Of a stretch of 64,000 bases of DNA, positions 42,555-44,693 are shown piece by piece. The stretch is from a virus, in the IMG/VR virus record IMGVR_UViG_3300048033_001096, positions 64,001 to 128,000 of that record, one strand, 5' to 3'. The translations under genes were made by a program, and so were the position numbers. Below the pieces are notes generated by a model, which saw nothing but the letters and a program-made list of their open reading frames with translations, was not told where the DNA came from and searched no databases. Numbering within the stretch: position 1 is the stretch's first letter; every line of letters begins with the position of its first letter.

Positions 42555-43733
42555 ATGTCAGAACTATTAGAAAGTCGCTGGCAGGACACTAAAACTGCAC
42601 TTGTAGAAGGTCTTAAAGGCAACAAGAAAGCTGTTATGGAAGCGACACTAGAAAATACTCGCAGGTATTTAAGTGAAACTGCAACAGCTGGTGCAACTTC
42701 TGCAGGTAACGTAGCTACACTTAACCGTGTTATCCTACCAGTTATCAGACGTGTAATGCCAACAGTGATCGCAAACGAGTTGGTTGGTGTTCAGCCAATG
42801 ACAGGCCCAGTGGGTCAAATTCACACACTAAGAGTACGTTATAGTGACGCATTCGACAGCACAAACGGTACAGACGTAGCTGCTGGCGAAGAAGCACTAT
42901 CACCATTCAAAATTGCTGAAGGTTATTCAGGGGACGCTGCTACTGATCGTGCATCAGCTACAGCATCGCTTGAAGGACAAGCAGGCAATAGAATGTCAAT
43001 CCAGATCTTGAAACAGACTGTAGAAGCTAAAACACGCAAACTAAGCGCACGTTGGACCTTCGAAGCTGCTCAAGATGCACAATCGCAGCATGGTATTGAC
43101 GTAGAAGCAGAAATCATGGCAGCACTTGCTCAAGAGATTACTGCTGAAATCGACCAAGAAGTTCTTGGTTCATTAGCTTCACTAGCAGGTAATGCTACTG
43201 AAACATACGATCAAGCAGCCGTATCAGGTACTGCTACTTTCGTTGGTGATGAGCATGCTGCACTAGCAGTACAAATCAACCGCGTAAGTAACTTGATTGC
43301 ACAGCGTACACGTAGAGGCGCAGGTAACTGGGCAGTGGTATCACCATTTGCACTAACTATCCTACAGTCAGCAACTACATCAGCGTTCGCTCGTACAACA
43401 GAAGGTACGTTTGAAGCACCAACTAACACTAAAATGGTTGGTACACTAAACAACGCAATGAAAGTATATGTTAACACATATGCAAACGATGCGTCACCAA
43501 TTCTTATTGGTTACAAAGGTTCAAGTGAATCAGATGCAGCGGCATTCTACTGCCCATACATCCCACTAATGAGCTCAGGCGTTGTACTAGATCCAAGCAC
43601 ATTCGAGCCAACAGTTTCGTTCATGACACGTTATGGATATGTTGAGCTAACGAATACTGCTTCGTCTCTAGGTAACGCAGCTGATTACCTAGGTAAAGTT
43701 GCTATTACTAACGGTAACGTTAGCTTTAGCTAA
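42555..43733 (+). CDS. gp23: Major capsid protein gp23 (392 aa)
   Basis: 'RRVMP..IA.ELVGVQPMTGP.GQI..LR..Y', 'VEAKTRKL.A.WT.E.AQD....HGID.E.E....L..EI..EI.QE', 'FYCPYIPL', 'F.P...FMTRYG'. Strong high-expression codon bias. Confidence 0.97.
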   Translation: MSELLESRWQDTKTALVEGLKGNKKAVMEATLENTRRYLSETATAGATSAGNVATLNRVILPVIRRVMPTVIANELVGVQPMTGPVGQIHTLRVRYSDAFDSTNGTDVAAGEEALSPFKIAEGYSGDAATDRASATASLEGQAGNRMSIQILKQTVEAKTRKLSARWTFEAAQDAQSQHGIDVEAEIMAALAQEITAEIDQEVLGSLASLAGNATETYDQAAVSGTATFVGDEHAALAVQINRVSNLIAQRTRRGAGNWAVVSPFALTILQSATTSAFARTTEGTFEAPTNTKMVGTLNNAMKVYVNTYANDASPILIGYKGSSESDAAAFYCPYIPLMSSGVVLDPSTFEPTVSFMTRYGYVELTNTASSLGNAADYLGKVAITNGNVSFS

Positions 43734-43754: not shown

Positions 43755-43783
43755 AAAAAAGGCGGCTTATGTCGCCTTTTTTT
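43755..43783 (+). terminator. Rho-independent terminator after gp23
   Basis: AAAAAAGGCGGC-TTAT-GTCGCC-TTTTTTT. Confidence 0.9.
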
Positions 43784-43805
43784 ATGACTTTTTTTAAAAA
43801 AGTGG

Positions 43806-43833
43806 TTGACTTTTATTGTAGTGATGCTATATT
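43806..43833 (+). promoter_or_regulatory. Sigma70 promoter with extended -10
   Basis: TTGACT (43806-43811), 16 nt, TG-c-TATATT (43825-43833); A/T tract upstream. Confidence 0.7.
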
Positions 43834-43839
43834 AATAAT

Positions 43840-44050
43840 ATAACAAGACGTTGTTATATGGGTTGGCGCTAATAATTTCCGCTCTAGAGGAGATAAGCGC
43901 ACTTGGTTAGGGGTAGTGCCCGGCGTAGAGTTTGGAGACAAGCAGTACGCACACTGCGATACTAAGCAGAACTGAGGTTCTAGGCGATAGATGAAACGGT
44001 ATCTGGACGCTTAGTTGGAGGTAAACCCAAGTCCTTCACCCACCTTTATT
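43840..44050 (+). ncRNA. Candidate ~200-nt structured small RNA
   Basis: Own promoter and terminator; GC-rich relative to flanks; at least 6 hairpins; no ATG ORF longer than a few codons near its 5' end. Confidence 0.7.
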
Positions 44051-44052
44051 AT

Positions 44053-44090
44053 AAAGCCCGATGCTTAACTGTGTCGGGCTTTTTCTTTAT
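44053..44090 (+). terminator. Rho-independent terminator after the sRNA
   Basis: AAAGCCCGATGC-TTAACT-GTGTCGGGCTTT followed by TTCTTTATTT. Confidence 0.88.
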
Positions 44091-44092
44091 TT

Positions 44093-44196
44093 GATAAATA
44101 CTATTGTCAGATAGTGTGCCGCAAGGCGGACTTATGCTGTACCCACAGCGTAGCTCATAGAACGGGCATAGGACTACTTTTTATAGGAGAAAACAA
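44093..44196 (+). promoter_or_regulatory. Late promoter (GATAAATA) and structured 5' leader
   Basis: GATAAATA at 44093-44100; leader hairpins GCC-GCAA-GGC and TATGCTGT-ACCC-ACAGCGTA; AGGAG SD. Confidence 0.65.
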
Positions 44197-44652
44197 ATGG
44201 GAAGACCACTCAATAAAAGATATTTCGGAACGCCAACAGCCGGCGGCAACGAAATTAAAGTACAGTTTTGGAACGGAACTGCATCAGTAAACGGCTGGAT
44301 TGTAAAGCAACTTGGAAGTAAAAAGTTTCGTTGCACAGACGGCACAGAAGTAGTAGATTGCTACCTAAGTACAAAAGCATCAGCTGACTTAGACGGTTCG
44401 CATGCTACAGTACCTAGTTTAGCTGAAATGTCTATTACAGTTAAAGACGACGGAGGCACTGCACAGCAAGTAACTAAAATTTCAGGACGCAAAGTAACAC
44501 TTGAAGACGGTACAGTGATCCAGTGGAACTTCAGTGATGCTACAGATGATGGCGCAGTTGAAATGGAAGAAGCAGGCGATGATGCAGTTATGGATAACGA
44601 CGATCTTGCACCAGATGCAGATGACTTCGAGTCAGACGATCCAACGGATTAA
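44197..44652 (+). CDS. Probable abundant virion protein (151 aa)
   Basis: Own late promoter, strong SD and downstream terminator; MGRPLNKRYFG N-terminus; acidic tail. Confidence 0.65.
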   Translation: MGRPLNKRYFGTPTAGGNEIKVQFWNGTASVNGWIVKQLGSKKFRCTDGTEVVDCYLSTKASADLDGSHATVPSLAEMSITVKDDGGTAQQVTKISGRKVTLEDGTVIQWNFSDATDDGAVEMEEAGDDAVMDNDDLAPDADDFESDDPTD

Positions 44653-44664
44653 GATAAAAGATAA

Positions 44665-44693
44665 AGTAGGGGAGAAATCCCCTACTACTTTTT
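44665..44693 (+). terminator. Rho-independent terminator
   Basis: AGTAGGGGA-GAAA-TCCCCTACT then ACTTTTT. Confidence 0.8.

Follow-up and report, generated by a model that had tools for sequence, protein, structure and literature searches.

A manA RNA with its own predicted promoter and terminator downstream of the capsid gene of an uncultured T4-like jumbo phage

The manA motif has been classed as probably cis-regulatory. It was found in potential 5′ untranslated regions of sugar, nucleotide, ibpA and photosynthesis genes, in sequences from marine metagenomes, cyanophages and Photobacterium (Weinberg et al. 2010, PMC2864571), and the Rfam type of the family (RF01745) is Cis-reg. Among cultured phages, cyanophage S-CREM1 carries a manA RNA (PMC9964418). 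More recently, manA RNAs were described that form pentamers through intermolecular L5–L7′ and L8–L9′ (or L3–L8′) kissing contacts, the pentamers closing into 8-, 10- or 60-mers (Ren et al. 2026, bioRxiv 10.64898/2026.07.01.735769). In that account manA_A0F1 is the 60-mer and also uses an L1–L1′ contact; five of ten screened RNAs gave structures, the remaining five being given as 'not determined', and assembly was seen in vitro at ~3 mg/mL. Other phage RNAs are described as working in similar ways. ROOL and GOLLD are phage-encoded, non-essential or accessory ornate RNAs whose loop contacts assemble them into RNA-only cages (Kretsch et al. 2025, PMC12286853), but at 600–800+ nt they are unrelated in sequence and fold to the RNA of ~210 nt considered here, which has no Rfam match to either. 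The phi29 pRNA is likewise a short phage RNA that multimerises by intermolecular kissing loops (PMC4201828, PMC5066667).

The RNA considered here lies in a window of 64,000 nucleotides, bases 64001–128000 of a 169,231-base viral contig estimated to be 46% complete, whose source is an uncultured T4-like jumbo phage. Positions 43841–44047 of the window (plus strand, as are all features below unless stated) match the full manA model, positions 1–192 of RF01745, and score 85.7 bits where the cut-off is 55.2 (E 6e-22). The stretch is a real structured RNA and a further representative of an already catalogued family; a match this clear is what an earlier note on this DNA had itself named as counting against its proposal. 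manA is single-copy in the 169-kb contig, and at the Rfam cut-offs the window contains only this RNA and a freshwater-2 motif. The window copy has the P1–P9 architecture, the L5–L7 and L8–L9 complementarity and the phage origin in common with the published motif. It differs in having an apparent promoter and terminator of its own and in lying after a capsid gene whose product is closest to those of Phosso/PA5oct/BF-like jumbo phages. A coding role for the stretch was considered and rejected, the sole overlapping ORF being a 42-aa minus-strand ORF with a TTG start; in the homologues the longest open frame on either strand has a median of 44 codons.

The fold of the RNA is supported both by its own sequence and by its relatives. 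The folding z-score is −4.3. Searches with the capsid protein and with DNA patterns supplied homologues, of which 54 diverse ones were aligned, giving the covariation check that the earlier note had called for. Compensatory change occurs at 59 of 72 pairs of the family structure in these phage homologues, and 74.6% of pairs can form, compared with 37–48% for slid controls. Re-alignment to a model of our own raised this to 79.5% in an alignment that itself leans towards structure. RNAalifold, run on the 20 closest copies with no structure given, recovered the same helices save P8b.

The RNA begins with the P1 hairpin (43838–43859), capped by a GACG loop, L1, at 43847–43850. The closing helix P2 pairs 43860–43863 with 44038–44041; it is 93% paired in homologues, with compensatory change at five of five pairs. 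P3a/P3b (43866–43900) carries loop L3 (43881–43888), which contains a palindrome with a CTAG core. A junction domain (43902–43976) is closed by P4, 43902–43908 with 43970–43976, and holds P5 (43910–43921; L5, 43913–43918), P6 (43923–43950; GNRA loop, 43935–43938) and P7 (43954–43969; L7, 43958–43965). P8a/P8b (43980–44014; L8, 43993–44000) and P9 (44017–44037; L9, 44022–44032), the latter 98% paired, complete the fold. Several of these helices had been picked out in the earlier note, namely the GACG hairpin, P3, P6 with its GAGA loop, P8 and P9, whereas P5, P7 and both kissing contacts had been missed. Two of its other stems did not hold up. The CTTGGT/ACTAAG stem has a pair probability of 0.009, is 55% paired in homologues and shows no covariation, CTTGGT pairing instead with 43970–43976 in P4; an AGAAC/GTTCT hairpin reaches a probability of at most 0.023 and is 52% paired, again with no covariation. 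Pairing of the last loop with ACTTGG likewise lacks covariation. Its proposed pairing with the 5′ TGGGTT was rejected because it is 42% paired, no better than slid controls, and competes with P2 for the same strand. The 5′ P2 strand did score above shuffles with L9 in a test of own against cross pairs; we attribute this signal to relatedness, and a minor fold in this subtype is possible.

The two kissing contacts are those used between molecules in the cage-forming RNAs. L5–L7 pairs 43914–43918 with 43960–43964 in 5 bp, one of them G-U, and is 88% paired in homologues with A-U/G-C compensation. L8–L9 pairs 43998–44000 with 44025–44027, a contact of 3 bp in the window copy, and homologues replace it with at least seven different pairs (GGU/ACC, UGAU/AUCA, AGGAU/AUCCU, GAGAG/UUCUC, GUGG/UCAC, UGCU/AGCG and GCUUA/UAAGC). 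L8 and L9 of one copy match each other better than loops taken from different copies in each of 2000 shuffles, a test that leaves kinship in. Covariation of both contacts fits pairing within one molecule and pairing between molecules equally well. With the cage RNAs manA_A0F1 and manA_67AA the window copy has in common the GACG L1 (of A0F1), AAUAA/UAAG elements in P3 and complementary L5–L7 and L8–L9 loops. Its loop code (UAGUG with UACUA) differs from theirs, its P6 is longer and ends in a GNRA loop, its L3 is palindromic, and its L8–L9 contact is weaker, 3 bp compared with the 4 bp readable in the A0F1 sequence.

Other members of the family vary these loops further. The L3–L8 pairing of the Photobacterium type could reach 5 bp in the majority subtype and has 2 bp in the window copy, where we reject it for that reason. 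In most of the majority subtype (for example L003:4427–4638) ACC recurs in L3, L7 and L9 and GGU in L5 and L8, so that either L9 or L3 could serve L8 as a partner, with up to 5 bp; these alternatives correspond to the two contact modes observed by cryo-EM. Variants in L099 (3123–3358, minus strand), L138, L171 and L185 have a P6 longer by ~20 nt, and the L8–L9 loops of L099 and L185 are recoded.

Evidence of a different kind comes from L1. The window copy retains all three loop types, L5–L7, L8–L9 and a self-complementary L1, which is GACG as in manA_A0F1. GACG occupies L1 in 60 of 100 homologues. Of the remaining 40, 27 have one of four 6-nt palindromes there, UAAUUA, UAGCUA, UUAUAA or GAUAUC, compared with 5.6% of random 9-mers. 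Independent changes are nevertheless few, about three or four, since GAUAUC, which also overlaps its stem, belongs to a separate clade and P1 modules have been shuffled among cores. Several of the palindromes sit in 9-nt loops laid out as 2+6+1, the layout of the retroviral dimer-initiation site. In retroviral RNA, GACG tetraloops and 6-nt palindromes within loops are both established dimer contacts (PMC5874298). Replacement of L1 by four different palindromes suggests selection for a contact between copies, and because a palindromic loop pairs only with another copy, this candidate two-fold L1–L1′ contact would be the best sign here of selected oligomers. The available portions of the published manA accounts make no mention of such an exchange. 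L3 of this subtype has a CTAG core in 38 of 38 copies (TCTAGA in 34), and its flanking stem covaries. The L3 palindrome, so far without compensatory change, is a possible extra two-fold contact of a kind undescribed for the solved manA RNAs, as far as their published account extends.

The palindromic L1 loops also bear on whether the RNA could act as a monomer. The earlier note had seen in its ends a loose likeness to a tRNA and suggested a tRNA, tmRNA or Y-RNA mimic. A related reading would be a monomeric decoy, in which P2 and P9 stand in for an acceptor stem and T-arm and sequester anticodon nucleases or other tRNA-binding defence proteins; pairing of the kissing loops would then be intramolecular and the cages a by-product of conditions in vitro. 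P9 does have conserved T-arm-like GGU...ARUCC ends and does adjoin P2, so this part of the resemblance is real, and some homologues adjoin tRNA genes (L050:4286–4570 is followed directly by one and L256:7764–7986 lies between tRNA-like sequences). The P9 loop, however, is a kissing loop with L8, the 5′ end of the RNA is P1 rather than an acceptor end, and the L1 palindromes pair only with another copy. ARAGORN found no tRNA or tmRNA genes in the window or in the whole 169-kb contig, no tRNA, tmRNA or Y-RNA family is among the Rfam matches up to E 10, and a CCA acceptor end is not conserved, CCA lying near the 3′ end in just 26 of 100 homologues. We consider a tRNA-like decoy improbable, and the mimicry first suggested is superseded by the manA match. 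A protein sponge or an anti-defence decoy, also put forward in the earlier note, may still apply.

The setting of the RNA distinguishes it from the published motif. Upstream is the gene for the T4 gp23-like major capsid protein (42555–43733; 392 aa; PHROG 138, E 1.6e-99). The best cultured matches of this protein, at 67–72% identity, are in the jumbo phages Sinorhizobium phage Phosso, Vibrio phage 2.275.O, PA5oct and Serratia phage BF, and it is 82–94% identical to the capsid proteins of many uncultured IMG/VR contigs. Outside the window, at ~12000–57000 of G000:C1, runs a long series of ORFs that resemble radical-SAM proteins and glycosyl- or methyl-transferases, as judged by their first residues. 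The capsid gene ends in an intrinsic terminator (43755–43790), which reads as a terminator on the minus strand too and would insulate what follows, as the earlier note had proposed. The RNA stands out from its surroundings in composition as well, with a G+C content of 47.6% compared with 34.9% for the window, in agreement with the GC-rich contents reported there.

Signals for separate transcription flank the RNA. A promoter-like site of the sigma70, early type at 43805–43833 consists of TTGACT, a 16-nt spacer and a TG-extended TATATT (10 of 12 matches), with a transcription start predicted at about 43838–43841. By itself such a site is no commoner than chance predicts (11 found, 10.9 in shuffles), and motifs like it stand before several ORFs of this genome. 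Its conservation is what sets it apart. Across 100 distinct homologue contexts, which are related to each other, were gathered with patterns from this lineage and are not independent, a promoter lies directly upstream of the RNA in 82, compared with 10 of 400 random sites; the −10 box ends a few bases before P1, and the promoter is found in all 30 contexts of the closest subtype. On the other side an intrinsic terminator (44053–44090), with pair probabilities of 0.72–1.0 in the full transcript, has counterparts after P2 in 71 of the 100 contexts, compared with 5 of 400 random positions. Promoter and terminator occur together in 67 of 100 (1–3% in controls), and about one-fifth of contexts have no promoter. 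The promoter and the strong terminator that the earlier note had identified are both borne out, and this conserved context supports its reading of an independent, early-type phage ncRNA gene, where 'early' refers to the type of promoter only. We infer from these signals that manA here is a free-standing gene, probably producing an RNA of ~210 nt (~250 nt with the terminator).

This layout bears directly on the cis-regulatory label. An orphan riboswitch at this site would let a ligand decide whether transcription passes the terminator into the 151-aa ORF downstream (44197–44652) and the structural genes that follow. Such a leader would agree with the Rfam type and with the potential 5′ UTRs recorded for the motif (Weinberg et al. 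2010, PMC2864571), the ORF does lie on the same strand, and a minority of homologues have no terminator and lie immediately ahead of a start codon (among them L105, L129, L203 and L220). The terminator, however, begins past the closing helix and forms with a probability near 1 alongside the family fold, and within the closest subtype terminators that differ in sequence are freely exchanged behind near-identical RNAs, so no riboswitch expression platform coupled to the aptamer, either an antiterminator or a sequestered ribosome site, was found. The next ORF, moreover, has signals of its own. A TAAATA motif at 44093–44100, which by analogy with T4 may be a late promoter, has counterparts 30–95 nt past P9 in 69 of 100 homologues and also precedes several structural genes of this genome. 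It is followed by a freshwater-2 RNA motif (44115–44199; Rfam RF02980, 68.6 bits, cut-off 49.9), a separate unit that forms the leader of the 151-aa ORF and is found in many relatives, whether they carry manA or are free of it. With a terminator, a late motif and a separate leader between it and the next ORF, manA does not occupy a potential 5′-UTR position in the window. Because the terminator forms beside the family fold and the next gene has its own motif and leader, there is no expression platform here for a riboswitch to act on, and a regulatory leader is distinctly unlikely. The stand-alone layout argues against the Rfam cis-regulatory label for this lineage; having its own promoter and terminator, the RNA would act in trans and would not control the next gene. 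In some relatives a different hairpin leader takes the place of freshwater-2. A perfect 9-bp hairpin (44665–44686), terminator-like on both strands, lies between the 151-aa ORF and a 428-aa ORF.

The RNA is not a constant feature of these phages. The interval between the capsid gene and the next conserved gene is complete in 52 relatives; 18 of these, some of them near-duplicates, have manA at the post-capsid site and 34 do not. Since most close relatives are without manA there, the RNA is accessory. The interval ranges from 155 to ~2000 bases and is a general insertion hot spot, which different manA subtypes fill and which also takes ORFs, glnA-type riboswitches and a tRNA. The glnA-type riboswitches (RF01739) in the post-capsid interval of related phages are at L013:3972–4021, L016:4234–4281, L025:4233–4280, L048:4236–4282 and L058:4666–4713; in L013 and L058 the glutamine riboswitch precedes a short basic ORF. 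In many relatives manA scores below the Rfam cut-off (36.6–53.3 bits). Searches with RF01745 and our own model R1 found no manA in five complete cultured, more distant relatives or in four other, incomplete contigs of 63–186 kb, and blastn against cultured phages gave only short chance matches to the promoter region and one 38-nt piece. These searches yielded no cultured host system. A pattern scan of bacterial genomes returned four true matches, on MAG contigs of three unrelated taxa (L324, L360, L369 and L384). They carry near-identical manA RNAs in marine MAGs labelled Verrucomicrobiales, Neomarinimicrobiota (153-kb and 335-kb contigs) and Gammaproteobacteria, and the contigs may be mis-binned jumbo phage DNA.

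Two further readings turn on this distribution. In one, the RNA would serve virion assembly as pRNA does in phi29, a kissing-loop pentamer that binds at a five-fold vertex of the prohead; its position next to the capsid gene would then make sense. Published manA RNAs form pentamers through intermolecular kissing loops (10.64898/2026.07.01.735769), pRNA too uses kissing contacts to multimerise within the packaging motor (PMC4201828), and in 25 of 30 copies of the closest subtype, which a DNA pattern alone had retrieved, the capsid gene lies at the same locus. Yet pRNA is described as essential in the phi29 packaging motor (PMC4201828, PMC5066667), whereas the window RNA, which has no Rfam similarity to it, has no counterpart at the site in the 34 relatives, nor was one found in the four other incomplete contigs or the five complete cultured relatives. 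The site is a hot spot for insertions of several kinds, the promoter is of the early type, and manA has also been reported from Photobacterium (PMC2864571). We give this reading the smallest chance of those considered. In the other, promoter, RNA and terminator would form a near-neutral mobile cassette that recombines at the post-capsid hot spot and confers little benefit. Its patchy presence (18 of 52), the different subtypes at one site and the shuffling of P1 and terminator modules all fit such a cassette, but helices and kissing loops alike show extensive compensatory change and the promoter is conserved, which implies selection on the RNA, and we regard near-neutrality as very unlikely.

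The explanation we favour, and consider probable as a whole, is that manA in this lineage is a stand-alone, early-type, accessory and self-assembling RNA. With its own promoter and terminator and with the linking loops retained, it looks like an independent self-assembling RNA and not like a switch for a neighbouring gene. The manA RNA has the P1–P9 fold. Host RNA polymerase would transcribe it from its early-type promoter to its own terminator, as the conserved signals indicate. Copies would then join into pentamers through L5–L7′ and L8–L9′ kisses, and L1–L1′ two-fold contacts would close these into 10-mers or larger shells, a step suggested, like the pentamers, by covariation and by cryo-EM of other members. 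The final step is a guess that we think is rather unlikely to be right in this form: that an abundant, nuclease-resistant, multivalent RNA particle acts as an accessory decoy or scaffold in host takeover. By analogy, we infer an early, accessory, self-assembling RNA comparable to ROOL and GOLLD.

The RNA itself is not new, but two things add to the published picture. One is the independent-gene layout in this lineage, which would explain why no ligand is known for manA, a long-standing riboswitch candidate, and redirects attention towards a trans-acting role. The other is that L1 stays self-complementary through different sequences, which supports the biological relevance of the cage contacts that Ren et al. 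(2026) observed only in vitro. The natural variants with different loop codes are ready constructs for working out the rules of assembly. A bolder proposal, to which we incline less than to its opposite but which we take seriously, is that manA has been misfiled as a riboswitch candidate and is a jumbo-phage gene product that forms closed RNA-only shells in infected cells. If true, the switch of L1 from GACG to palindromes would be genomic evidence of a selected two-fold contact of the 60-mer, and the cage would be the working form of the RNA, produced early in infection as a compartment, decoy or scaffold.
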